Positions 20,755-47,593 of a stretch of 64,000 nt of DNA are shown in pieces; positions within the stretch are counted from its first letter, which is position 1, and each line of letters opens with the position of its first letter. A model generated the notes under the pieces. The model was not told the DNA's origin. It did no database searches and saw only the letters and a list, made by a program, of their open reading frames with translations. A program made the position numbers and the translations under genes. Where the stretch lies: assembly GCF_013315695.1 (NCBI RefSeq), contig NZ_CP054353.1, one strand, 5' to 3'. The DNA is from Escherichia coli. Its GTDB lineage: Bacteria > Pseudomonadota > Gammaproteobacteria > Enterobacterales > Enterobacteriaceae.

Positions 20755-21455
20755 CGCGGATCAAAGAATGGCACAGGAAAATATGAAAGATCATTTTGCA
20801 GATTGAGTTTCTGGACGACCAGACCAAGTTCACTGTTACGTCCAATATCAAGCCACAAGTTATTGCTGGTTGAGATTTCACAGCTATTCTGATAATGGCC
20901 AATTAATTCAAAACGCAAACGATTAAAATCCGAGAAATACAATGGGTTAAGCGTTATTTCCGCCAACGTTTTTTTTCCCAGTTGTTCTTTGGTAATCGGT
21001 AATACTCCCATCAACTCATCATTAAGATAAACTTTAAGCTGCGACTGAACGGGGATCAATGACGGTGACGGAGTATATTCAAGCTTTAGTTTTGCATCTG
21101 AAACTATCTCATCACTGCGCATACCAAATTCAATATACCCCAGTGGGTTGACACCATTCAAAACGATGTTACCAGGCGCTGGTGATATTTGTGTAAATGG
21201 AAGTTTAAAATGATAAGAGGAATCTTTCGCATAAACAGAGACGTTAGACTTCTCTATAGCGGGTAATACTATCCCGGAGGGAGACTTATGGATTATGGTA
21301 TCTAAAGCTGATGCAGCATTTGCCTGGTATAACCATAAAAACCCTAAGCAAATTATTGCAGTAATAAATTTTAAATATTTTCTTTCCATTTTAAAAATTT
21401 CAAGAGACATAATCAACACAAATAATATATTTAGTTGGTTAAATATAATCTAAAA

Positions 21456-23570
21456 CTAATTCTCACGACTATTTTTTAGTGTCCGCAGAATATAAAAAAT
21501 CATATTGTAATACCCTTTAAGAGAGATGATACATACGTCAAAAAAGCTCTTTAGTATATTATCTTGCTTAATTTTATCATTCCACTCTTGCCATAATGAA
21601 TCACGTGAAAATGTTACTCTGACATAATTAATATTCTGTTCATAAGTCATTGGCAAAATCTTCAGACCAATTTTATTTTTGTAAGCATGAACAACTTTTA
21701 CAGGAATATCACATTCCCCTTTATTATCACTCAGATAAAGAGACAAATGCTGAGTTTTTTCGATTTCTTTTACATCGGAGATGTGATCAACAATAACCCC
21801 CAGGCCACCTTCGGAGAAATCAATAACAGAACAGGGATAGCACCGTCCATCTGCTAGTTTTATCACACCTTTAAAAGAAACATCTATCCGAGGAGAAAAG
21901 CGGACCTGCTTTTGTTCAATAGAGACTGCCAGGGTTGCGCCAATAATAATTGTATTATAAATCAACCAAATCAAACAAAATAAATTTAATATAACAAGAT
22001 GACCTTGCAATCTATAAATATTAATAACACCTATTATTAGTCCAATTAAATTTAAAATAGCAAAAATAAGATAAGGATATGAGATTCGCCAGTCAACAAA
22101 TTTATTTTTTATTAACCCGCCCTTGGCAGTAACGTTAAATCGCCCTTTAGCTGGCGCAAGTAAGGCAACAAGCGTTGGTAGTGTAATATACCAGGCCAGA
22201 ACCATTTCATAAATTTCATTCCAAAATGAATGTCTGTATTCACCCTGAACTCTTGAGTTAGTAAAAATAATCACAAATAGATAAGGTAGAACATAAGACA
22301 TAATATCTGCAACCGACGCATCTATCAAATTAACTGAAAAGAAAATAGGACATAGTGGCGCGAATAAAAAAATCAGCCGTGGAACCCCTGATAAAAAATG
22401 CATCATGCTACTGAGATAGCAAAGACGCTGTGATAACGTCAGCCCTTTGCCCAATAATGGATTATCAATACGTAAGATTTGGATCATGCCCCTGGCCCAC
22501 CGTATTCGTTGTCCGATATGAGCAGACAATGTTTCGGTAGCAAGTCCAGCGGCCAGAGGATAGCGAAGATATGCGGAGCTGTACCCTGCACGATGCAAGC
22601 GTAGCGATGTATGCGCATCTTCCGTTACCGTTTCAACTGCAATGCCTCCAACCTCATCTAATGCAGACCTACGGATAACCGCGCATGAACCACAAAAAAA
22701 TGAAGCATTCCATGTATCGGTGCCATTCTGGATTAAACCATAAAAAAGATGTCCTTCATTTGGTTTCTGCCGAAATTGCCCCAAGTTTCGCTCAAAAGGA
22801 TCGGGAGAGAAAAAATGATGTGGTGTTTGCAGCATCGATAGTTTTTTATCGGCAATAAACCAGCCCATCGTTTTTTTTAAAAAAGAAACGGAAGGAATAT
22901 GATCACAATCGAAAATAGCAACAAATTCGCCGTTAGCTATTTTAAGCGCATTGTTTATATTTCCAGCTTTCGCATGTTCATGCGTTTCTCTTGCAACATA
23001 GCAAATACCTGACTCATCAGCAAATTTCCTGAATTCGTCTCTGGCACCATCATCAAGAAGCCAGACATGTAATTTATCTTTTGGCCAGTCTAAAGCCAGC
23101 GCTCCATAAACTGTATTCTTCACGACAGTAAAGGGTTCATTATATGTAGGTATGAATATATCGACATCAGGCCATTCTTCTTTATTATCTGGTAAAGGTA
23201 TGCTTTCCCTGTTCAATGGGAAACAGACCTGAAAATAACCAAGTAATAAAACAAACCATGCATACGTTTCAGCAGCTAACAGCGTCAATGAAAAGAAGCT
23301 GTCAGGAAACTCATCAAGAATAACTGAAGAAGAGTAACGCCACCATAGATACCTTGTGGATATAAGTATACCAATACCCATTAAGATCAGGGTAATCATC
23401 CTTCCCCTGAGCAAATTGAGGAGAAAAACAGAGATACAAATGATAATCGAGAATAGTGTTTGTTGATAAAAACCGAGCGGCTGTTCAACAATTGACAAAA
23501 AAACAAAACATAGCAATATAGCAACAAAAAGAAAAATTTTGTTGTATATTTCTTTATTTTTTAAATTCAT
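21456..23570 (-). CDS. BcsA-like processive family-2 glycosyltransferase with C-terminal PilZ domain
   Basis: 704-aa multi-pass membrane ORF with FDCDH and QRIRWARG (QxxRW) motifs and PilZ signatures RFSPR / DFSEGGLG; AT-rich (about 25-35 percent GC). Confidence 0.85.
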   Translation of the reverse strand: MNLKNKEIYNKIFLFVAILLCFVFLSIVEQPLGFYQQTLFSIIICISVFLLNLLRGRMITLILMGIGILISTRYLWWRYSSSVILDEFPDSFFSLTLLAAETYAWFVLLLGYFQVCFPLNRESIPLPDNKEEWPDVDIFIPTYNEPFTVVKNTVYGALALDWPKDKLHVWLLDDGARDEFRKFADESGICYVARETHEHAKAGNINNALKIANGEFVAIFDCDHIPSVSFLKKTMGWFIADKKLSMLQTPHHFFSPDPFERNLGQFRQKPNEGHLFYGLIQNGTDTWNASFFCGSCAVIRRSALDEVGGIAVETVTEDAHTSLRLHRAGYSSAYLRYPLAAGLATETLSAHIGQRIRWARGMIQILRIDNPLLGKGLTLSQRLCYLSSMMHFLSGVPRLIFLFAPLCPIFFSVNLIDASVADIMSYVLPYLFVIIFTNSRVQGEYRHSFWNEIYEMVLAWYITLPTLVALLAPAKGRFNVTAKGGLIKNKFVDWRISYPYLIFAILNLIGLIIGVINIYRLQGHLVILNLFCLIWLIYNTIIIGATLAVSIEQKQVRFSPRIDVSFKGVIKLADGRCYPCSVIDFSEGGLGVIVDHISDVKEIEKTQHLSLYLSDNKGECDIPVKVVHAYKNKIGLKILPMTYEQNINYVRVTFSRDSLWQEWNDKIKQDNILKSFFDVCIISLKGYYNMIFYILRTLKNSREN

Positions 23571-23643
23571 GGTACGTAACTATTCATTAATACTATGATT
23601 TGACTTTAAAAAAACGAATGAATGATGTCATAAAAATAAAATT

Positions 23644-24984
23644 TTAACACCAGGTTACCTGTGCTCTTCCATTTTGCTTACTTTTGTATAATCGTTCATC
23701 TGCCAGTAATTTCAACCGTTCAATGTTATTCATGCACTCGTCAGTATTGGCAACACCAATACTGCAACTACAATTCAATCCACCTATTGAGAAATGGACT
23801 ATTCTGTGCAAAATTCTTGATAATTGATTTATATCTTTATCATGATAAATAATAGCGAACTCATCGCCACCAAATCGATAAACTTCACCTTTGCTGAGGG
23901 GTAATTCATCCTTAATAAGATTAACAAGTCTTATTAGTACTTCATCACCAAATAAATGACCAAACTTGTCATTAATGGTTTTAAACTTATCTACATCAAA
24001 CAGGCATAAATATCCAAAATCCTTACTCAGCATCCTGATATTTTTATCAAAAACACGACACCCAGAAGCTCGCGTCAATGCATCGTAAGTCCCGGAATCA
24101 TATATTTCTCTAATTGCATCAATCTCTTCAACGTTAAAGAATAGATTTTTTCCATGCAAATTATAATGATTATTCGATAATATAGATTCTTTTTCTGACT
24201 TACCCTTATTTATGATTTTTTGCATTAATTTAATGTAATGAAAATATATTAACCCCGCAGAAATCGCCGATGTGAAAACAAAAAACAAGCACATATAAAT
24301 ATACTTATCTTTTTTATAGGCAACAATAAACATTACTTCCGGGATATAAGAATAAGCAAGAGTGATCGCTGATTTCTCAAATACAGCATCATTAATCAAA
24401 AAATCATCACCCGCGATTTTCTTTTCATTATCATTGATATCATAAAATGAGACATATATATTTTCCCGTTCACCTGACTGATTTCTTATCAAAGCCAAAT
24501 AACGTTCAGGATCTACCACTGATATCAAACTTGTTCGTTTCGAAATAGGATGAGCATAATAAATATAATATTTATTATTTAAACTAATAATCCCTCTTTC
24601 AAAGATGTTACTTATACGGATAGAAGAAACTATGCCGTCACAAAAGTTATCCCCTTCCGTTGTAACTTTGGCGCATTTACCATCGCTAATGATATAGGGA
24701 CCTAGATCATAAATATATTCTGGTTTTTGAAAGTCAGCAAAACTATTGCGTATCCTTTTTAACAACTCTTCCGGAGAAATATCTAACCCATAAAATACAT
24801 TATTAAATACTAAGCGCCGATACTCAGACACATTAGCTATAGCAAGCCCACTATCTATGATCGATACCTTTACCGAATTGACTCGATCTTTAACGTAAAT
24901 AGTATACAGATAACATGTCATTACAGAGACACATAAAAAATACAAAAAACAGATCCCTGCTGCCTTTTTTTTATACTTAAACAT
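23644..24984 (-). CDS. membrane-anchored diguanylate cyclase (GGDEF)
   Basis: 446-aa ORF with two TM segments flanking a periplasmic domain and an intact RFGGDEF active site. Confidence 0.85.
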   Translation of the reverse strand: MFKYKKKAAGICFLYFLCVSVMTCYLYTIYVKDRVNSVKVSIIDSGLAIANVSEYRRLVFNNVFYGLDISPEELLKRIRNSFADFQKPEYIYDLGPYIISDGKCAKVTTEGDNFCDGIVSSIRISNIFERGIISLNNKYYIYYAHPISKRTSLISVVDPERYLALIRNQSGERENIYVSFYDINDNEKKIAGDDFLINDAVFEKSAITLAYSYIPEVMFIVAYKKDKYIYMCLFFVFTSAISAGLIYFHYIKLMQKIINKGKSEKESILSNNHYNLHGKNLFFNVEEIDAIREIYDSGTYDALTRASGCRVFDKNIRMLSKDFGYLCLFDVDKFKTINDKFGHLFGDEVLIRLVNLIKDELPLSKGEVYRFGGDEFAIIYHDKDINQLSRILHRIVHFSIGGLNCSCSIGVANTDECMNNIERLKLLADERLYKSKQNGRAQVTWC

Positions 24985-24988
24985 TGTG

Positions 24989-27337
24989 TTATTTTCTTTT
25001 TTTCGGTTTACTGTCTATATGCCACTCTGAAAACGGTAATGGTTTCTGGTATAAATATCCCTGAACATGGGAGAAGCCTAATTTTTGTAATTCTCTGGCC
25101 TGTCTTTCTGTTTCAACACCTTCAGCGATCACTGGCATATTTTCTTCTCGTGCAAGACTAGATATAAAACACACAACCCTGTTAGTTTCATCGAAAATAC
25201 CAGAAGTAAATTCTGAATCAATTTTGATGCTATCAGGTCTAACTTTGTATAATTTTTTCAAGTCAGCTAACCCACTGCCAAAATCATCAAGGGAAATTTT
25301 AATGCCATTTCTTCTTAAAAATTTTATATTATTATAAAAACTATCATTTATATCTTTCATTGCTGACTCGGTGATCTCCAGACAGATTTGTTCCGTATTT
25401 ACGCCAAATTTATTAATTAAATTCAAAACGCGGGTATGGAAATCAAATTCATTTAACTGCCAAGGTGAAACATTGATATGCAGAAGAAATTCTTTCGTAA
25501 TTTCATACTCACGACTAAATGAACCAAATTCACCAATAGCCGTTTCAAGAACAAAATCACCCAGTTCTTTAATTAAGCCAATTTCTTCAGCAACAGGCAC
25601 GAAAACTGATGGTGGTATTGCACCATTTTCAACGGACAACCAGCGGCATAACGCTTCGGCGCCAACAACATTATTACTATCCATATCAACAATCGGTTGA
25701 TATACTAAATAAAACTCACTACTCACAATTGCTTTTTTTATATTTCCAGCAACCCAAACCTTTTGATCAAGTTCATGAGCCTTAATATCATCATAAAATA
25801 TAAATTCAGATTCTTTATTTTCTCGCATAGCTGTTAATGCCAGTTTCAGTTTACCTTCATAAATCGACAAACTTTCCCCTGAAAAAGTTTCACAAATAGC
25901 AACCTTATGAACATAAATATTTCTTATGCAAAAAATATGCTCAGGAAAGTTTAAAACAGATAATCGTTCTATGAACTCTTCACAATGAGTGTGACACAGC
26001 AACAAATATGTTTCAGTAGAAATTTTTATAATATCACAATATTTAGAATACTTTGCTGATATCTTTGATTTTATATCATTAATGATCTCATAAAATTTCT
26101 GACTGCCATGTATAGCCTCTACAAACTCTAATCCATAGATACAAAGCATACCAACTGCTGAATAGGTTTTATTATTAGTTTCAATGACAGATTTGTTGAT
26201 ATAGAAACAACTTCCTTGTTCATAGGAAACAAGATTAAGTAACCGTTCCATCCGCTCTTTGTATTTGTCACTAATGTTATTAATGATTTTTTTGAGCTCA
26301 ATAATCTCACTACTGTCATTTTGCACGATTTCGATTTTATCATTTCGGTATACTGAGCTCGCTAATTTTTTCAGATGCTCAATTAGTTTACCAGAGTCGT
26401 TTCTAACCTTTTTTGTTATCTTTTCAAAAAGGTACCATAATAAACAGAAACAAACCAAACCACATACAAACATCAGTGTAAAATATTTATTTATGTTTGT
26501 GTCTTCTGCTTTTTGATAATGAAAATAATGAAATTTGACATCAGGAAGCCTGGGGAGTGAAATAATATCGTCCGTATAATTACCGTTATTATTACTTATG
26601 TTATAACGTCCAGATGCATCTCTAACAATAAGATGTAACATTGATTGTTCATTACCTACCATAATCCTTTTATTCTGTTCCATAAATAAAATATCTGCAT
26701 TTCCTCCTAATTTGTCCAGGAAATTGCTAAAATATCTTTCATCAAGATCTAAATGAATTAACTTCAGAGCAAATGAATCTTTTTCTGCTTCGGCTGGTCG
26801 TAATGAAAACGAAAAACATTTTTTCCCGGCAATGCCATAGCAGTTATACCATGGTGACCATTTTGAATAAGTCCCTGTTGGTAATTTATTCCAGGGACGG
26901 GATTCAGGATCAAAGTAGTTATCGTTAATTTCACCATCAGGGCTAGTAAAAGCATGACCTGGCTCTGATTGCCCCAAAAATTTAACATCACCATTATCAG
27001 TTCGAATAAAGCTAAGATACTTTCCATTATTTAGCATTATTCCGACTAAATTAACAGAATCTATCTTTTTCATCCGATGAAGAACTGCGCGTTTTATTTC
27101 ATTTTCATCGTGTAACAGATAAATGGCATCTTTTAAAGCATCCGCCTCTTTTTCAACTTTAGAAAAAAAGTTATTCAAATTATTATTGATAAGTATAAGA
27201 TTAATGCGTGAAGAGTTTTCTGCTATTTTTTTATAAAAATCAATGGCTGTAATAAATGATAAAATAATATAGACAGTGACAGCGAATATAAGCGCAGTGT
27301 TAAATCTTGAGTTTAATTTTTCTGTGATGCTATACAT
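24989..27337 (-). CDS. membrane-anchored c-di-GMP phosphodiesterase (EAL)
   Basis: 782-aa ORF with two TM segments and periplasmic domain; EAL signatures GAEALCRW, LDDFGSG, AEGVE; first gene of the operon, stop 4 bp before the GGDEF start. Confidence 0.85.
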   Translation of the reverse strand: MYSITEKLNSRFNTALIFAVTVYIILSFITAIDFYKKIAENSSRINLILINNNLNNFFSKVEKEADALKDAIYLLHDENEIKRAVLHRMKKIDSVNLVGIMLNNGKYLSFIRTDNGDVKFLGQSEPGHAFTSPDGEINDNYFDPESRPWNKLPTGTYSKWSPWYNCYGIAGKKCFSFSLRPAEAEKDSFALKLIHLDLDERYFSNFLDKLGGNADILFMEQNKRIMVGNEQSMLHLIVRDASGRYNISNNNGNYTDDIISLPRLPDVKFHYFHYQKAEDTNINKYFTLMFVCGLVCFCLLWYLFEKITKKVRNDSGKLIEHLKKLASSVYRNDKIEIVQNDSSEIIELKKIINNISDKYKERMERLLNLVSYEQGSCFYINKSVIETNNKTYSAVGMLCIYGLEFVEAIHGSQKFYEIINDIKSKISAKYSKYCDIIKISTETYLLLCHTHCEEFIERLSVLNFPEHIFCIRNIYVHKVAICETFSGESLSIYEGKLKLALTAMRENKESEFIFYDDIKAHELDQKVWVAGNIKKAIVSSEFYLVYQPIVDMDSNNVVGAEALCRWLSVENGAIPPSVFVPVAEEIGLIKELGDFVLETAIGEFGSFSREYEITKEFLLHINVSPWQLNEFDFHTRVLNLINKFGVNTEQICLEITESAMKDINDSFYNNIKFLRRNGIKISLDDFGSGLADLKKLYKVRPDSIKIDSEFTSGIFDETNRVVCFISSLAREENMPVIAEGVETERQARELQKLGFSHVQGYLYQKPLPFSEWHIDSKPKKRK

Positions 27338-28436
27338 ACTGGTGTTCTGACTAAAATGTTATCAATAATTTCGATATTACATTATATAAAGTTCGGTATA
27401 TGAAATGGTATTAATACTCCTCTTTATGATTTTCTGAATTAAATGATCTCCATTCTGTAAATATATCATAATGAGAAGATTGATTTTCTCTTAATTTACC
27501 AAAGTTATTATCATGCTTATTACTTTAACCAGAATGACATTATCATATATAGCGTTTATACTTTTGCATCTTCCACCCACGCTACCGCCTTTCGTTAATT
27601 TATCAACGAAATAATTTAGATATGAAAAAATCAATATATGACGCCTAAGCTATCACATTATGCATAGTTGCGACATTCACCTCTTTAATTATCCCAAAGA
27701 GGTATTAATGTGAATTCTCTATCATCCATTTTGCTGATTTATCTTTTTTCAGTCATGAGCAATCCGACTCTCTTAGCCAAAATAAATTAATAACCTTAAA
27801 ATGAGGTTTAATCAGAAAGTAGTAGCCACAGCTTGACTATTAAGACTATAAATTAGCCATAACGATGGACAGATAAATATGTTAATGAATACATGTTCAA
27901 TAAAACAATAAGGCACAACGCCAGGCCACCATTTTATTTTAAAAATAAAAGGCTGTGAACTATGCCAGGTATAATCTGATTCTATCGAGAGAGAATTTTT
28001 GTAAGTTACAAATACTGCAAAAGACACATTACACAAAATTTTTAACCACACAAACACCTTGTGTTCTGTATAACAGAACAATAGCTGTGGTCATTTTCAG
28101 CAAGTTTAACTAAAATTATCAAGAATTTTTTTTGATGTATATCAAAAACAATAGTCTTCGCGCATCCGTTACTGCTTAACATTTACCCACAAAGTTCATA
28201 TTTTCACCACACATAATCGTTCACTTCAGAACTTAAAATAATAACTTGCAAAATAACCAATAATTAAAACTATCACTGCATCTAAAAATAAAGATTAAGA
28301 TAACTAAAATTCGTATTATCACGGCATCGTTTATCGCCACCCGTCTCTTAAGAAAAATTTAACTTTGCTATTATCAGTCCTCTCCGAATTTCTCTTCTAT
28401 TTACTGCGATAACCCCGGCGAACCGGGGCATGATGA
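27338..28436 (-). promoter_or_regulatory. 1.1-kb AT-rich noncoding leader/promoter region upstream of the EAL-GGDEF-bcsA-like operon
   Basis: No convincing ORF; strongly AT-rich; sits at the 5' end of a minus-strand operon. Confidence 0.4.
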
Positions 28437-36128: not shown

Positions 36129-36427
36129 AATGGCTCACTCAAGCTTGCTCACGATTGATTCCAGTAACAAACCGTATTGTGTAATTATTTCTATAGCAGG
36201 TCGCTATATAGGATTGTATATATCGAATAATTTGAAAATCAAAGAGATAGGTAGATTTTCACTCGAAAGTAGTATTACGTGTAAGTGAGGAGTAATTATT
36301 GTTCGGTATCAAAGGGAGACAAAAAAAGCGCCCGCAGGAGATTTAACACACCTTACTCCCCTTGATGATTTACTTATTTTTCAATGACTAAATCAAAACA
36401 AGGGGAGCAAATTAACGCAAATTACAA
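36129..36427. promoter_or_regulatory. dmsA upstream region containing the presumed prophage attachment junction
   Basis: AT-rich 300-bp spacer between dmsA start and the 3' end of the phage integrase; segment AAAAAAAGCGCCCGCAGGAGATTT at about 36321-36344 partly resembles a P2-type att core as I recall it. Confidence 0.3.
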
Positions 36428-41169: not shown

Positions 41170-41402
41170 GGTGAAGCCATGGTCGCCATCCTGAATGTGT
41201 GTTGCTGCCCCCCCCTGAACGTGGAAAGAAAAGCCCGCGCATCGCTGCGTTTATTCCGCGACGGCGTGCGGAATTTTTCACGCATAAAACCCCACGACTA
41301 CCTGGTAATAAGAATCGGTTTTCGCTGGCGATTGCTGAGCAAAAACAACGGGGCGTCATGGGATTTATTAACGCACGAAACCTATAACAAAGAGGCCGCG
41401 TT

Positions 41403-42347
41403 ATGAGCAAAGAACTGTTATCCGGCACGCCGCTTAAATGGGTGGGCGGAAAAAGTCGCATCATGAACACACTGAAGGCGCATCTGCCAGAAGCAGACTG
41501 CCTGGTTGAGCCGTTTGTGGGTGGCGCATCGGTATTCATGAACACCAGTTACAAGCGTTACATCCTGGGTGATTCCAATGGTGCGCTGATTAATTTCTAC
41601 CGGCAAGCCAGGGACAACACCGACAGCCTGATCGACGAGGCGAAAACCCTGTTCCTGAACCACAACAACAGGGGTGACTATCTCATCATTCGCGAAACCT
41701 TTAACGCAGAGAATCATGCCTTCCTGAACAGCAGAACGGGAATAAGCGACCGCCGTGAACTGCGACTGGCCGCCATGTTTTTGTACCTGAACCGACACAG
41801 CTTTAACGGTTTGTTCCGCGTGAACGGAAAAGGCGATTTTAACGTGCCTTTCGGCTGCTACCGCAAGCCCTACTTCCCTGAGCGTGAAATCCGCGCATTT
41901 GCAGACAAGGCAAACAGCACCCGAACGCTGCTTATCCACGCAGATTTTAAGGATACGCTGAACTCTGCCAGTCACCTGTTCGGCATGGGCAACACGCTTT
42001 GCGTGTACTGCGATCCCCCTTACCTGCAATTCAGTGGCCGGGACAATTTTACCGCCTACGGAAAACCATTCGATGAAGACGAGCACGTTCGTCTGAGGGC
42101 AGCGCTCGACCGCCTTTCACAGGAAACGGGCGGCATGACCAGCATCACCATCTCCAATTCCGACACACCGGAAACACGACGCATTTATCGGGGTTACCGG
42201 ATGAACTGCATACAGGCACCACGAAGCGTTGGCGCAAGAACCCGGGAATCAGCACCGGAGGTTATCGCCACCCTGAGATGCATCACATCCGCCTTATCAA
42301 CGGTTCGCACTTCTGCGCCACGAACATGGAAGAAGTACGCGTGCTGA
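41403..42347 (+). CDS. dam: DNA N6-adenine methyltransferase (Dam-like)
   Basis: 314 aa with CDPPY catalytic motif and FVGGASVF SAM-binding region. Confidence 0.85.
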   Translation: MSKELLSGTPLKWVGGKSRIMNTLKAHLPEADCLVEPFVGGASVFMNTSYKRYILGDSNGALINFYRQARDNTDSLIDEAKTLFLNHNNRGDYLIIRETFNAENHAFLNSRTGISDRRELRLAAMFLYLNRHSFNGLFRVNGKGDFNVPFGCYRKPYFPEREIRAFADKANSTRTLLIHADFKDTLNSASHLFGMGNTLCVYCDPPYLQFSGRDNFTAYGKPFDEDEHVRLRAALDRLSQETGGMTSITISNSDTPETRRIYRGYRMNCIQAPRSVGARTRESAPEVIATLRCITSALSTVRTSAPRTWKKYAC

Positions 42348-42375: not shown

Positions 42376-42726
42376 ATGGCAGTGATTTATATCGCCGGTC
42401 CCATGACCGGATGCAAAGACCACAACAGGACGGCATTTTGCGTGGAGGACCTGAAACTTCGGTGCGCCGGAAACATCGTTCTTAATCCTGCCGTACTGCC
42501 TGACGGATTAAGCCAGCAGCAGTACATGAGTATTTGTATTCCGATGCTCATGTGCGCCGATGCCATTTACTTACTGGATGGATGGGAAGAGTCCGCTGGC
42601 GCACGGGCTGAGTACGCAATGGCGCTCAAACTGAACATGCATGTGTCATTCCCGGAAAACCGGGCAGCCGGCGAAACCGTCGCGCAGCTGCTTCACAAAT
42701 CAAAAGCCGCACAGGCGACTGAGTAA
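42376..42726 (+). CDS. nucleoside 2-deoxyribosyltransferase-like / DUF4406-like small protein
   Basis: 116 aa starting MAVIYIAGPMTG (Rossmann-like YxAGP motif). Confidence 0.45.
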   Translation: MAVIYIAGPMTGCKDHNRTAFCVEDLKLRCAGNIVLNPAVLPDGLSQQQYMSICIPMLMCADAIYLLDGWEESAGARAEYAMALKLNMHVSFPENRAAGETVAQLLHKSKAAQATE

Positions 42727-43164
42727 CCGACCGGAGATCGAAACATGATTGCGCGCAGAGCTACCAACCGTCTCACAGGCTTTATTCCAGGCAAGGTTGA
42801 TCATGCACTCCATCACGGGGCTGTCACTTTCCTCAACAAAGGAGAGGCGCGCAATCATGCATTCCGGGGTGAGCATGTGGCGCTGGCTAATCAGTCTTTG
42901 ATAGCTAAGCGCCTGCCATTCAGCCTTTTCAGCTCTGATAGAAAGAGAGGAAGCCATGACCTGCCACACCAGAAAGAGCACCACACTGGCGAAAACAAAC
43001 GTTGCGCTGTCGCAAAAAATGAATGCGGCAACAATCGCAAGGAAAGCGCTAATCCTCAGAACCAAGGAAGCGCGACGGTGGAGAAGGCTTGTCATGTGTT
43101 CAAGCCAGTAGCTGTACCACAGGTCAAAAAGAATTTCGTAATCAGAAGGGAGCTTATCACTCAT
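42700..43164 (-). CDS. hypothetical membrane protein, convergent with the dam module
   Basis: About 154 aa from MSDKLPSDYEILFDLWYSYW with two hydrophobic helices; start lies 16 bp from the left edge of the tandem repeat. Confidence 0.4.
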   Translation of the reverse strand: MSDKLPSDYEILFDLWYSYWLEHMTSLLHRRASLVLRISAFLAIVAAFIFCDSATFVFASVVLFLVWQVMASSLSIRAEKAEWQALSYQRLISQRHMLTPECMIARLSFVEESDSPVMECMINLAWNKACETVGSSARNHVSISGRLLSRLCGF

Positions 43165-43547
43165 CAGAAACACCCCGCGTATGCAGACAATCACCAGTTG
43201 CCAGGTGATATTAATTCGCAACATTCTAACCACATCAGCACGCAACACAAAAACCGCTTGCCAGCGCTCGTCGTGTCAGGTTACATTTCCGCTGCACCTC
43301 ATAAAACGGGTGCCGGGTTTCGCAGCCTGCTGACAACCAAAGCGCACAACCGCGCCAGCGGTTTTTTTGTGCGTACTGTATTGCCACGTCTTTTTCGCGT
43401 CAGAATTATGGCGGGGCGTACGGGGCCGACTTCGGTCGGGCCGGGTTCTTTGCTAGCCGGTACTGCGAACCTCGTACGTCTCGCCACCCACAGTTTCGCA
43501 GCTCTGGATGGTGAGTTTTCACAACTTACTAGCAAAGAGGCCACACC

Positions 43548-43769
43548 ATGGCAAACCGCAAGCAACAGCGCGCCCGCGCTGAGCGTCTTCACATCCGCAG
43601 CGAAATCAACCGCAGACTTTTCCGCGCAACACGCGTCGCGCAAATCATGCATATCAACATGCTGCATGAGCGCACGCACGCACTATCAAACCGTTACTGC
43701 GCTGCTGTCTTCAGCTATCTCGCCGAAGATCTGGCAGAACTGCAAAGCCTCATCAACCAGCACCGATAA
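43548..43769 (+). CDS. small basic protein (73 aa), copy 1
   Basis: MANRKQQRARAERLHIRSEINRRLFRATRVAQ..., AAAGAGG Shine-Dalgarno; identical copy at 44377-44598. Confidence 0.45.
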   Translation: MANRKQQRARAERLHIRSEINRRLFRATRVAQIMHINMLHERTHALSNRYCAAVFSYLAEDLAELQSLINQHR

Positions 43770-43837
43770 ACCACATCCGGAAGCTATCCCACACCTGCAC
43801 GCGGGAGGCTTCCGCACGTCTGTTACCGGAGGTTCTC

Positions 43838-44008
43838 ATGAAGAGCGTTAAGGGACTTTCAGATATTCAGGACTTCTTTAACTGGATGTGGGCGGTGGAT
43901 CCCCTGCTGGCTTCCCGCCTGAACAACTGGCACGACTATTACCGCCGCGCCTGTAAACAGGCTGCCCGCAGCGTCACCACATACGGGGCTTTCTCCTTCA
44001 CCGTTGAC
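43838..44008 (+). pseudogene. 5'-truncated duplicate of the 138-aa pre-A gene
   Basis: First 57 codons match 44667-44837, then the frame runs into repeat unit 2. Confidence 0.5.
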
Positions 44009-44837
44009 TATGCAGACAATCACCAGTTGCCAGGTGATATTAATTCGCAACATTCTAACCACATCAGCACGCAACACAAAAACCGCTTGCCAGCGCTCGT
44101 CGTGTCGGGTTACATTTCCGCTGCACCTCATAAAACGGGTGCCGGGTTTCGCAGCCTGCCGACTAGCAAAGCGCACAACCGCGCCAGCGGTTTTTTTGTG
44201 CGTACTGTATTGCCACGTCTTTTTCGCGTCAGAATTATGGCGGGGCGTACGGGGCCGACTTCGGTCGGGCCGGGTTCTTTGCTAGCCGGTACTGCGAACC
44301 TCGTACGTCTCGCCACCCACAGTTTCGCAGCTCTGGATGGTGAGTTTTCACAACTTACTAGCAAAGAGGCCACACCATGGCAAACCGCAAGCAACAGCGC
44401 GCCCGCGCTGAGCGTCTTCACATCCGCAGCGAAATCAACCGCAGACTTTTCCGCGCAACACGCGTCGCGCAAATCATGCATATCAACATGCTGCATGAGC
44501 GCACGCACGCACTATCAAACCGTTACTGCGCTGCTGTCTTCAGCTATCTCGCCGAAGATCTGGCAGAACTGCAAAGCCTCATCAACCAGCACCGATAAAC
44601 CACATCCGGAAGCTATCCCACACCTGCACGCGGGAGGCTTCCGCACGTCTGTTACCGGAGGTTCTCATGAAGAGCGTTAAGGGACTTTCAGATATTCAGG
44701 ACTTCTTTAACTGGATGTGGGCGGTGGATCCCCTGCTGGCTTCCCGCCTGAACAACTGGCACGACTATTACCGCCGCGCCTGTAAACAGGCTGCCCGCAG
44801 CGTCACCACATACGGGGATTTCTCCTTCACCGTGGAC
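44009..44837 (+). repeat. tandem duplication, unit 2 (829 bp)
   Basis: See unit 1. Confidence 0.85.
44377..44598 (+). CDS. small basic protein (73 aa), copy 2
   Basis: Identical translation to 43548-43769. Confidence 0.45.
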   Translation: MANRKQQRARAERLHIRSEINRRLFRATRVAQIMHINMLHERTHALSNRYCAAVFSYLAEDLAELQSLINQHR

Positions 44838-45083
44838 GGTCGTTACCGCGTGGACGTGAAAGGTGATGGTGATGGACTGGGTTTATTTCACATCAACGGC
44901 ACCGACAGTACCGCCATCAGCTGGTCGTCATCAGAGATGGCGCTGGTTCTGGAAATGACAACCCACAGCGTGGCCGTGAAAGGTATATACACCGCAGAAG
45001 GTTTTATCGGCGAATACCAGCGCCTTCTCGTGCTGTACCGCGCGGCGTTTCAGGTGGCAACTGCCGGGGAGTGCGACGCATGA
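44667..45083 (+). CDS. hypothetical protein immediately upstream of gene A
   Basis: 138 aa, GGAGG Shine-Dalgarno, stop overlaps the A start. Confidence 0.5.
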   Translation: MKSVKGLSDIQDFFNWMWAVDPLLASRLNNWHDYYRRACKQAARSVTTYGDFSFTVDGRYRVDVKGDGDGLGLFHINGTDSTAISWSSSEMALVLEMTTHSVAVKGIYTAEGFIGEYQRLLVLYRAAFQVATAGECDA

Positions 45084-47593
45084 GCGACCATAACGCACAA
45101 CTGGCGTACCCGTGGAACGCCCCGCTACCGGTTATCGATCCTGAAACGTTCGGCAGAGCACAGCCAACCGCATTACGCCAGGCCATTCAGAGCTACATCA
45201 ACGAGGACATTCGCATTGATGCCAGACTGGATGAAGAAACCGTCGCCTTTCTGACAACCACAGACGAAGGGAAGCGAATTAATTCGCACCTTCACCACAA
45301 CGAAGAGCGTCGGATCAGACTGGAAAAACTGGCGCGGCACAAACGCGAGAATCCGCCCACGGTGGTATCGGAAGCCATGGCAGAACTTCGCGCCCTGCCC
45401 TCGTTTCTTGGCAACGCGCTCATTCGTGATCTGGCGCGTTTAAACCGCAAACAGCAAAGCGCCCGCCATGAAGGCGTGAAAAACAACAATACACACGTGG
45501 CTGATAACTTTGTTCGCCGTGGACTGCGCACACGCCTGAAACGCATCGAACAGGTGAATGAATGCTTCGCCACGACGGCATTCAAAGCCACCGCAGCACG
45601 CCATCGCCTTGATGAATTACTCATGCTGCCACAACTCAACCGTGATCAAATTCAGCGCCTTGCCACACTAACGGCGGCGGCATTTTCCACCGAACTGGAA
45701 CGCATATGTGATGAAGTTACTGAGCGGACAGGAAAAGGCGACGATAACCTGTTTACCTGGTTGCTGACTTACCAGCAGCTGGCGCGCATGGCAATAAAAC
45801 TGGGCGTGAACCCACCATACTGGCCGTCACTCGAGATCAGACGTGACCGCCGCACGGCACCAGACCCTGAACTGGTACCGGGCGCGGTAATGCGTATCAC
45901 CTGCGCCACCTGGTGGAACAACCAGCTGCGCCACCTCGCTGATCTCTGGCGGGAGGAATTACTGCGTGCCGCCGGAAGAGTATCGCGCAAGGCATCCCCC
46001 TACATCAGCCATGAGTCACTCCAGGAATTCCGGGAGAAACGCCAGCGCACCCGTGATTTTCTCAAAAGCTGGGACATTGAAAACGAAGACGGTGAACGCC
46101 TGAGCCTGGAGGACGTGTACTGGTCAGGGCTGGGGAATCCGCGCAACCGCCGCAACGAGATGATGGCCTGCGTCAGAGGGATGGAACAGGTCGCCGAATC
46201 GCGTGGTGACTCCGCGTTCTTCGTGACAGTGACCTGCCCTTCCCGCTTTCACAGCGTAAACGAGGACGGCAGCCTGAACCCGAAATACAACGGTGCCACC
46301 GTGCGCGATGCCAGTGATTATCTGGTTTACGACGTCTTTGCAGCTGCAAGAAAAAAACTCAACAAAGAAGGCCTGAGCTGGTACGGGGTGCGCACCGTTG
46401 AGCCACACCATGACGGCACACCGCACTGGCACATGCTGGTATTCACCGCCCCGGACAATGAAGAACGCATCATTGAAATCATGCGTGACGCAGCAATCAA
46501 ATCAGATCGCGCAGAACTGGGGAATGATATTTCTCCGCGCTTCAAGTGCGAAAAAATCGACCCGGCAAAAGGCACACCGGCAAGCTACATCGCAACCTAT
46601 ATTGGCAAGAACCTGGACGCCAGCACCTTTCACGACAATGACCCGAAAACCGGCAAACCTTACGCCGATAAAGAATCGGGAAAAACCATGGCGGAAACCG
46701 TGGAAAACGCCATTGCCTGGGCGAGTCTCCACCGCATCCGGCAGTTCCAGTTCTTCGGTATCCCGCCCCGCCAGGTATGGCGTGAACTCCGCCGCCTTGC
46801 CGGACAAATGGAGCGTAACCCCGCATCACCGAAGCGCCTGGACCATGACGACATTGACGCCATTCTGGCCGCCGCTGACGTGGGGTGTTTTGCCACCTAC
46901 ATCAACCGTCAGGGCGGCGTGCTCATTCCACGCAACCTGTACCTGATCCGCACCGCATACGAAACCGCAGATGAGGCCAACGACTACGGCGAATTCCCGC
47001 AGCGCATCTACGGAATTTGTGCCCCGTCGCTCGGCGAGCGCTACACCATCTGCACCCATCCGGACGAGTGGAAACTGGTCAGAAAAGAAGCGAAAGCCGA
47101 CAACAGCACGGACGAGGATTTTGACGTTGGGGGCGGCTTCGCCGCACCTTGGACTCGTGGCAATAACTGTCGCCATGATGAAAAAACAGACACCGAAGAG
47201 GGTAAAAACCCACCACCGGAAACCAGGAAAGAACAAAAACTGGTCGTCCCGGAAGGTGATTTGGGCGAGTGGTTAAGGTCACTGACCCCCACAGAGCGAA
47301 AACAACTCACCAGGCAGCTGAAAGATGCGCCATCTGACACAAAAACCGTGAAAACCGGCGGCCCCACCACGCCCGATGACGTCATACATGTGCGTACCGC
47401 ATTGCCGCTGGCTGACGTCACCACCACCGTGATCAAGTCGGCACTGAGCACGACGGGCGAGGAGCTGCACAGTGGCGCGGCACTTTCCGTACACAGAGGT
47501 GCACGCGTTCGCCTGCCTGACGGGCGGATTGTGCACTGGGATGAGAAATCACGAAGCCTGGTGGCAGCAGATCAACCGGAGGTGAACCCATGA
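45071..47593 (+). CDS. P2 gpA-like rolling-circle replication initiator
   Basis: 840 aa with HUH-type motif HHDGTPHWHMLVF. Confidence 0.9.
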   Translation: MRRMSDHNAQLAYPWNAPLPVIDPETFGRAQPTALRQAIQSYINEDIRIDARLDEETVAFLTTTDEGKRINSHLHHNEERRIRLEKLARHKRENPPTVVSEAMAELRALPSFLGNALIRDLARLNRKQQSARHEGVKNNNTHVADNFVRRGLRTRLKRIEQVNECFATTAFKATAARHRLDELLMLPQLNRDQIQRLATLTAAAFSTELERICDEVTERTGKGDDNLFTWLLTYQQLARMAIKLGVNPPYWPSLEIRRDRRTAPDPELVPGAVMRITCATWWNNQLRHLADLWREELLRAAGRVSRKASPYISHESLQEFREKRQRTRDFLKSWDIENEDGERLSLEDVYWSGLGNPRNRRNEMMACVRGMEQVAESRGDSAFFVTVTCPSRFHSVNEDGSLNPKYNGATVRDASDYLVYDVFAAARKKLNKEGLSWYGVRTVEPHHDGTPHWHMLVFTAPDNEERIIEIMRDAAIKSDRAELGNDISPRFKCEKIDPAKGTPASYIATYIGKNLDASTFHDNDPKTGKPYADKESGKTMAETVENAIAWASLHRIRQFQFFGIPPRQVWRELRRLAGQMERNPASPKRLDHDDIDAILAAADVGCFATYINRQGGVLIPRNLYLIRTAYETADEANDYGEFPQRIYGICAPSLGERYTICTHPDEWKLVRKEAKADNSTDEDFDVGGGFAAPWTRGNNCRHDEKTDTEEGKNPPPETRKEQKLVVPEGDLGEWLRSLTPTERKQLTRQLKDAPSDTKTVKTGGPTTPDDVIHVRTALPLADVTTTVIKSALSTTGEELHSGAALSVHRGARVRLPDGRIVHWDEKSRSLVAADQPEVNP

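Follow-up and report, generated by a model that had tools for sequence, protein, structure and literature searches.

What does the structured leader at positions 43190-43547 of this stretch of Escherichia coli DNA (64,000 nucleotides (nt) of contig NZ_CP054353.1, referred to below as the window) do, and does it act as RNA, as a set of protein-binding operators or as coding sequence? An original prediction, made from the letters alone, had offered a candidate regulatory RNA or an operator cluster, and had described the interval as free of open reading frames (ORFs), any long frames across it being antisense or frame artefacts. The interval is very probably the immunity leader of a P88-like prophage of the P2 family, organized along the lines of satellite phage P4 immunity and of immI in phage P1. 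By match to Rfam, the candidate regulatory RNA is in fact two RNAs, an IsrK-family small RNA (sRNA) and a C4/CI-family antisense immunity RNA.

Two RNAs and their pairing sites

A scan of the whole window at Rfam gathering thresholds (50 bits for isrK and 45 bits for C4), the search against noncoding RNA family models that had been proposed as a check, places both families above threshold in both copies of a duplicated leader (Table 1). All of the features named in the original prediction are found within 1-3 nt of where it had put them. The hairpin CCGC-GCCA-GCGG with its run of seven Ts is present at 43350-43368 and forms the 3' end, that is, the terminator, of IsrK. The UUCG hairpin has the core CCGAC-UUCG-GUCGG at 43426-43439 (a longer version spans 43424-43442) and is the first inner hairpin of C4. 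These two hairpins are far beyond chance, because they lie inside Rfam matches that score well over the gathering threshold.

The C4 RNA consists of a 17-bp outer stem around the UUCG hairpin (43426-43439) and a second hairpin, the loop of which is the pairing segment b'. Its minimum-free-energy fold is the Rfam consensus (z = -4.8). The upstream element is filed under isrK because it meets the isrK threshold and misses that of the alternative c4-a1b1 model (RF03163; 20.5 bits against a threshold of 46.7); a permissive scan otherwise added nothing. (The c4 and c4-a1b1 motifs are both listed in PMC2864571.)

IsrK is the counterpart of P4 seqA, and C4 that of the P4 CI RNA, which pairs with seqA and seqC and brings about premature termination (PMC4825925; PMC3632133). 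The arrangement is named seqA, CI(seqB) and seqC in P4, and a1b1, c4 and a2b2 in P1 (PMC4825925; PMC3632133; PMC2864571). In P1 terms, the a' and b' segments of C4 face a1 and b1 in IsrK on the upstream side and a2 and b2 on the downstream side. The b2 site overlaps a Shine-Dalgarno sequence, AAGAGG (43535-43540), 7 nt before the ATG at 43548 of a gene for a 73-amino-acid protein related to P4 epsilon.

Table 1. Features of the leader, its duplicate and adjoining genes (window coordinates; the third column gives the equivalent in the second repeat copy)
Feature	Position	Copy 2	Strand	Remarks
Tandem repeat	43180-44008	44009-44837	+	Copy 1: leader, epsilon-like gene, orf138 codons 1-57; copy 2 runs on into intact orf138 and gene A
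Palindrome ATCACC-N8-GGTGAT	43190-43209	44019-44038		Outside conserved module
Promoter-like site TTGCCA-N18-TACATT (sigma-70-like)	43258-43287	44087-44116	+	Consensus scan; preceded by A-tract 43249-43253
isrK (RF01394)	43294-43368	44123-44197	+	Copy 1: Rfam 65.9 bits, terminator scan; copy 2: Rfam 64.3 bits
a1	43319-43325	44148-44154	+	Copy 1: pairs with a', loop of second IsrK hairpin; copy 2: matches own C4
b1	43334-43342	44163-44171	+	Copy 1: mismatched allele CAACCAAAG, 7/9 positions paired with b'; copy 2: CUAGCAAAG, IsrK linker, matches own C4
IsrK terminator hairpin and U7	43348-43368		+	Terminator scan
C4 antisense RNA (RF01695)	43404-43491	44233-44320	+	Copy 1: Rfam 82.8 bits, E ~1e-14, model 1-87, full-length; copy 2: 82.8 bits, model 1-87, sequence identical to copy 1
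b'	43447-43456		+	UCUUUGCUAG, loop of second C4 hairpin
a'	43463-43469		+	CUGCGAA, unpaired in C4
a2	43495-43501	44324-44330	+	UUCGCAG, exact complement of C4 a', 7 nt
b2	43529-43538	44358-44367	+	CUAGCAAAGA, exact complement of C4 b', 10 nt
73-amino-acid epsilon-like gene	43548-43769	44377-44598	+	Pfam PF25738 'Derepression', E = 1.8e-6; phrog_3688
Eta-like frame through leader 1	42745-43851		+	5' part (42745-43164) is a shadow ORF antisense to the minus-strand gene
Chimeric open frame	43838-44680		+	orf138' (57 codons, 43838-44008) fused in frame to eta-like frame of leader 2
orf138	44667-45083		+	phrog_3237, unknown function; first gene past duplicated unit
P2 gene A-type replication endonuclease	45071-47593		+	phrog_91, E = 2e-244; 31% identity to P2 A, E = 5e-82
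Divergent neighbour gene	42700-43164		-	phrog_6315, E = 8e-66; unknown function

Homologous leaders were collected from 80 IMG/VR loci encoding relatives of the 73-amino-acid protein, from phage P88 and from E. coli genomes, yielding 48 distinct leaders, 38 of which make up a gap-free alignment of 270 columns with 91% mean column identity. Variation among leaders sits in six short blocks, a1, b1, b', a', a2 and b2, set in a nearly invariant scaffold. Across the 38 leaders the three helices of C4 show 100% pairing, and four of their pairs have compensatory changes on both sides. The a':a2 pairing holds in 100% of alignment cells, with four of its seven pairs changed on both sides, and b':b2 in 95.5% (six of ten pairs so changed). 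On the upstream side the figures are 99.2% for a1:a' (four of seven) and 98.5% for b1:b' (seven of nine). Most pairs occur as three to five pair types per position. Controls shifted in register pair in 28-52% of cells, and none of 500 shuffles attains the observed pairing percentage or covariation score. The covariance analysis across related prophages that had been suggested as a further check thus backs both structures as well as the pairings between segments, and this comparison of sequences provides strong evidence that all four pairings are under selection.

The a and b sites re-assort independently, since 5-6 a alleles and 11 b alleles occur in 17 combinations across the leaders. By analogy, this fits the idea that the a/b blocks determine immunity specificity, like the classical difference between P1 and P7.

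Promoter-like site, palindrome and open frame

The promoter-like site ahead of IsrK has its -10 element ending 6 nt before the first base of the isrK model. Its -35 element, TTGCCA, is present in 45 of 45 distinct upstream sequences, whatever the upstream gene; the -10 element is TACATT in 43 of these and TACAGT in the other two (L010 and L013). A second promoter-like site, at 43381-43409 over the 5' end of C4, was not adopted: its -35 element is not conserved (column 93 is T or C). An antiterminator was considered at 43245-43261, a segment complementary to the terminator's 3' half; this segment lies upstream of the presumed transcription start, and the simpler reading, an A-tract/UP-like element together with the -35 hexamer, is preferred.

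On a rival view, the leader would serve chiefly as a set of operators for DNA-binding proteins, in which repressors bound to the palindrome and to the remaining inverted repeats control the divergent promoters. The palindrome is present exactly where it had been reported, between the start of the minus-strand gene (43164) and the IsrK promoter, and as a specific sequence its pattern is rare (0.17 expected per window). Inverted repeats with 6-bp arms are, however, abundant: the window contains 262 perfect ones with spacers of 4-12 nt (approximately 1.6 per 400 nt), two of them in the leader, and as a class the palindrome is no more than chance expectation. Among relatives it is confined to the subgroup in which this minus-strand gene is the neighbour, and most homologous leaders lack it yet have the RNA module intact. 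The other inverted repeats are RNA stems, backed by covariation and family membership. The sole candidate operator is thus within chance and is not conserved with the module, and the operator half of the original prediction has become extremely unlikely.

The leader might instead encode a protein, its matches to RNA families being incidental; in many records it is annotated as a 'transcriptional regulator/repressor'. The description of the leader as ORF-free survives in the sense that no frame is under protein-level constraint, but one frame on the sense strand stays open across the leader in 45 of the 48 distinct leaders. In most loci this frame opens with a conserved ATG, 57-60 nt ahead of IsrK (hence upstream of the leader promoter), and stops approximately 558 nt downstream, 14 nt past the orf138 ATG, for a length of about 205 codons. 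The alleles of the hypervariable blocks include 35 stop triplets, none of them in the open frame and 22 and 13 in the other two frames, and the translation matches PHROG 'transcriptional regulator/repressor' families with E ~1e-15.

On the other hand, polymorphism in the open frame is flat by codon position (33/41/36), implying that the amino-acid sequence is unconserved and that openness alone is kept; where the frame overlaps the epsilon-like gene, polymorphism peaks at its own second codon position. Three homologues carry frameshifting indels, and the variable blocks covary as RNA pairs, not as codons. The PHROG labels probably stem from a legacy 'cI protein' annotation of the same frame in P4, the factor in question being described as an RNA (PMC4825925). 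A protein-coding leader is thus very unlikely, and we retain the reading of the interval as an RNA leader with an open frame running through it.

By frame calculation, the register of the open frame relative to C4 is that of the P4 eta/'cI ORF'. Forti et al. are said to have described eta in 1999 as a 197-199-amino-acid ORF whose translation lets transcripts begun at the upstream promoter escape immunity. An eta-like role, residing in the act of translation and not in its product, is plausible here by analogy. No kil gene is nested in the open frame, and the epsilon-like ORF is in a different frame.

In the subgroup to which the window belongs, the ATG at -57 is absent and the frame reaches upstream as a shadow of the minus-strand gene. 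(The resulting 368-codon plus-strand shadow ORF, 42745-43851, overlaps the real minus-strand gene at 42700-43164.) This ORF, despite its good start at 42745 (GGAG-N8-ATG, 19 nt past the DUF4406 gene), was rejected as a gene: its first 140 codons are shadow, and polymorphism favours the minus-strand gene, in which it is distributed 29/17/48 over codon positions 1/2/3 counted from the ATG at 43164. An antisense ORF of 126 codons (43299-43679, minus strand) lies across both RNA genes. It is a RefSeq 'hypothetical protein' in strain G6/7 (WP_250998453.1), has no match in PHROG, and is probably a mis-annotation.

The proposed switch and its relatives

Around the leader lies a prophage of the P2 family, P88/Xuanwuvirus type, which is integrated beside dmsA in E. 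coli. It encodes an integrase, a Cox-like regulator and a repressor with 35% identity to P2 C; its early genes include an exonuclease, a Dam methylase and a DUF4406 protein. There follow the leader duplicate, with a 73-amino-acid ORF in each copy, orf138 and a homologue of gene A, with SSB, portal and terminase farther on. The 73-amino-acid protein is 32% identical to P4 epsilon (E = 8e-8), and polymorphism in its ORF falls on third codon positions (16/15/44), which marks the ORF as a real gene. Gene A is presumed to be the ultimate target of control. An NCBIfam search provided no name for the 73-, 138- and 840-amino-acid proteins. The early region of P2 contains neither isrK nor C4; the module is therefore not a general trait of the P2 family. 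The segment comprising C4 and its target is present in 1,096 of 5,426 complete E. coli genomes (~20%).

Family membership, folds, complementarities, covariation, homology to P4 and gene context suggest the following scheme; from them we infer RNA processing, the effects on termination and translation, and the immunity phenotype. The conserved promoter-like site, putatively of constitutive type, would start transcription at ~43294, and most transcripts would end at the IsrK terminator, generating an IsrK RNA of ~75 nt that bears a1 and b1. Transcripts that read through would carry the C4/CI-like RNA, presumably released through RNase P cleavage and trimming of its 3' end, the route followed in P1 and P4. 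Pairing of C4 a' with a2 and of b' with b2 would cover the ribosome-binding site of the epsilon-like gene and block its translation, and the consequent loss of coupling would lead to premature termination. This would shut off the epsilon-like protein (a candidate anti-repressor), orf138 and gene A, both in the lysogen and in any incoming phage whose a/b type is the same, the a/b blocks serving as the specificity code of the system. The same C4 segments would also pair with a1 and b1 of IsrK, which may provide feedback on the IsrK terminator, as in P4, where such pairing brings about C4-dependent termination at the first terminator; alternatively, free IsrK may titrate C4 and so unlock the transcript in trans, as in Gifsy-1.

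Several points weigh against this scheme. IsrK by itself folds no better than shuffled sequence (z = -0.9). The ends, processing and abundance of the RNAs are taken over by analogy from homologues, and accounts of what the a1/b1 pairing does diverge, with termination and autoregulation given for P4 and trans-activation for Gifsy-1. Directly after b2 comes an epsilon-like gene where P4 has kil and P1 has icd, and the replication gene under control is a rolling-circle initiator and not the P4 primase; on both counts the downstream logic could differ.

The immunity region of P4 has the order PLE - seqA/t1 - CI RNA - seqC - kil/eta - epsilon - alpha. P4 itself yields isrK and C4 matches in Rfam, in the same order and upstream of epsilon, and it has the same six-site layout of a1/b1, a'/b' and a2/b2, with b2 over the ribosome-binding site of the first leader ORF. 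Both systems have three-site complementarity (seqA, seqB, seqC) within one leader, headed here by a conserved promoter-like site and in P4-type immunity by a constitutive promoter. In both, too, an extended open frame crosses the leader in what is, by frame calculation, one and the same register with respect to C4, an epsilon-family gene lies downstream, and replication genes close the operon. They differ in that the host here is not a satellite but a full-size, P2-like phage of the helper type, with a P2 C-like repressor, gene A, portal and terminase. In addition, the first ORF after b2 is epsilon-like and reads in another frame than the eta-like one, so that no kil is nested there; orf138 bears no relation to P4 orf151; a gene A nickase takes the place of the alpha primase-helicase of P4; and the cassette is tandemly duplicated.

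The immI region of P1 and P7 (c4 antisense RNA - icd - ant; Citron and Schuster 1990, as cited in PMC2864571) has a C4 RNA of the same Rfam family, with a'/b' pairing with a1/b1 upstream and a2/b2 downstream. There too C4 targets the ribosome-binding site of a small ORF in the leader, an anti-repressor function comes under RNA control, and heteroimmunity comes about through changes in the pairing segments. In contrast, no similarity to Icd or Ant is detectable in the 73-amino-acid ORF (which matches only the Derepression family in Pfam and PHROG), orf138 has no Ant-like match, and replication genes lie downstream.

A third relative is the isrK - orf45(STnc1160) - anrP locus of the Salmonella prophage Gifsy-1 (PMC4825925). 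Its IsrK, which has its own promoter and a leaky terminator, precedes a processed C4-like RNA and a gene locked at the level of translation, whose translation state is set by complementarity between IsrK and the downstream RNA. Gifsy-1 is, however, a lambdoid prophage whose output is an Ant-like anti-repressor and then the AntQ antiterminator. It has neither replication genes nor an epsilon homologue at this point, and tandem duplication is undescribed there.

The kind of system is already known, both RNAs being members of curated families and the system itself a homologue of P4 immunity. According to a literature search, the module with an epsilon homologue in a widespread lineage of P2-like prophages, the combinatorial a/b allele code, and tandem cassettes (heterospecific or chimeric) are apparently undescribed. 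What RefSeq and PHROGs label as 'hypothetical protein', 'transcriptional regulator' and an antisense ORF is corrected to two regulatory RNAs and their targets, and an RNA immunity switch of P4/P1 type, with an epsilon homologue, is placed within a widespread P2-like prophage family. This bears on the induction of P88-like prophages (P2 itself being without the module) and on the origin of the P4 immunity and epsilon genes. The three-way covariation can be used as a map of specificity alleles for inter-phage immunity experiments.

Tandem cassettes and the surrounding DNA

The leader is part of a head-to-tail duplication with a period of 829 nt and six differences between copies (99.3% identity), as determined by repeat search and a direct periodicity scan; Tandem Repeats Finder, whose longest period is 500, reported no repeat for it. 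The differences are at 43278, 43331, 43335 and 43337 in the leader and at 43989 and 44005 outside it. The original prediction had noted that they cluster in the leader. Four of the six do so, three of them hitting the IsrK b1 target site of copy 1, and the cluster is a specificity-site swap.

Repeats of 829 bp at 99.3% identity are difficult to assemble from short reads, and an E. coli genome can hold up to four such leaders; the tandem and its copy differences might then be an assembly artefact, made by collapsing or mis-joining reads of two related prophages. Against this, the exact junction CACCGTTGAC|TATGCAGACAAT is found in three of 5,426 complete E. coli genomes (G6/7, G8 and STEC2018-607, which are independent of one another) and again at the end of a metagenomic viral contig (L007), and the variants beside the junction (43989 and 44005) are likewise common to the other junction-bearing sequences. 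We give an artefact next to no credence. Because the identical junction recurs in these genomes and the contig, the duplication is taken to be real, to be rare and to have arisen once. A search of the 80 viral-contig loci showed no second leader within 2.5 kb in any of them.

The junction also fuses reading frames. The chimeric frame at the repeat boundary is 280 codons long and ends 14 nt past the ATG of intact orf138. The same orf138'/eta-like fusion is present in G6/7, G8 and STEC2018-607, via the identical junction.

Cassettes were compared between G6/7, STEC2018-607 and the window, G8 having been detected by junction match alone. In G6/7, cassette 1 has the alleles UUUCCAC (a) and CAAACGAAG (b), and cassette 2 has UUCGCAG and CUAGCAAAG. 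In STEC2018-607 these are UUGGAAC and CUAGCAAAG in cassette 1, and UUCGCAG and CAAACGUAG in cassette 2. Thus, the two cassettes of each of these genomes differ in specificity, and each is internally matched. In the window, both cassettes are UUCGCAG and CUAGCAAAG, except that b1 of the first is CAACCAAAG; the C4 RNAs of the two copies are identical, and so are their a2/b2 targets. When the IsrK sites are compared with their cognate C4, a1 and b1 both fit in copy 2; in copy 1, a1 fits and b1 is mismatched. IsrK-1 accordingly pairs with C4 through a1 alone, its b1 being of another specificity type. The predicted b':b1 duplex has -13.2 kcal/mol in copy 2 versus -3.9 kcal/mol in copy 1. The allele CAACCAAAG is that of the L013/L025 type of leader, whose own C4 loop is CUUUGGUUG. 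Only two of the 38 leaders are mismatched, window copy 1 and L007, and since both lie in tandem arrangements this points to copy 1 as the product of recombination between cassettes.

These observations can be assembled into a fuller reading that combines a two-site combinatorial code, a tandem carrying two specificities, an orphan IsrK and ribosome carry-over at the junction; taken jointly we consider it rather doubtful. If it held, the immunity code of P88-like phages would have at least 5 a and at least 11 b alleles, freely re-assorting, and the rare tandem would be a way of holding two specificities (as in G6/7 and STEC2018-607), something that the C4 homologue of locus L081 would do in one RNA. 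Cassette recombination would yield an 'orphan' IsrK, as in window copy 1, that does not fit its own C4 and that could weaken C4 autoregulation or act as a decoy for the C4 of another co-resident or incoming phage. The orf138'/eta-like fusion would carry ribosomes on transcripts that escape cassette 1 through cassette 2.

The C4 homologue just mentioned (L081:236-340; IMG/VR UViG_2582580934_000004) has a 17-nt insertion that adds a second b'-type segment. Its two b' segments, CUUUGCUCU and CUUGUGUAG, differ in specificity, and the second alone fits the b1 and b2 sites of its own leader. The RNA has a C4 score of 73.9 bits and a fold z of -4.0; in the minimum-free-energy fold, the first b' is in a hairpin loop and the second is partly paired. 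It could be an immunity RNA of dual specificity.

E. coli STEC2018-607 (L085, L087) contains three leaders, the tandem pair and a single copy in a second P88-like prophage. Their a alleles are all different and two of them have a b allele in common (one genome checked), which suggests that a difference at one site may suffice for co-residence. The distinct a allele of the third leader is anecdotal support for heteroimmune co-residence.

Other features lie farther from the leader. The divergent neighbour gene varies in length among RefSeq genomes (465, 525 and 648 nt). A 75-codon ORF at 41179-41406, in the early operon of the prophage, corresponds by position to a RefSeq 'ParE family toxin-like protein' gene of related prophages and overlaps the start of the Dam-family methylase gene (41403-42347). 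A full-length match to the enterobacterial sRNA STnc130 (126 bits) at 36219-36353 adjoins the integrase end of the prophage, in the dmsA-proximal attachment region. Finally, positions 21000-28000 form an island of low GC content (0.29-0.40, versus ~0.50 elsewhere) with strongly negative GC skew, probably a separate, horizontally acquired region.

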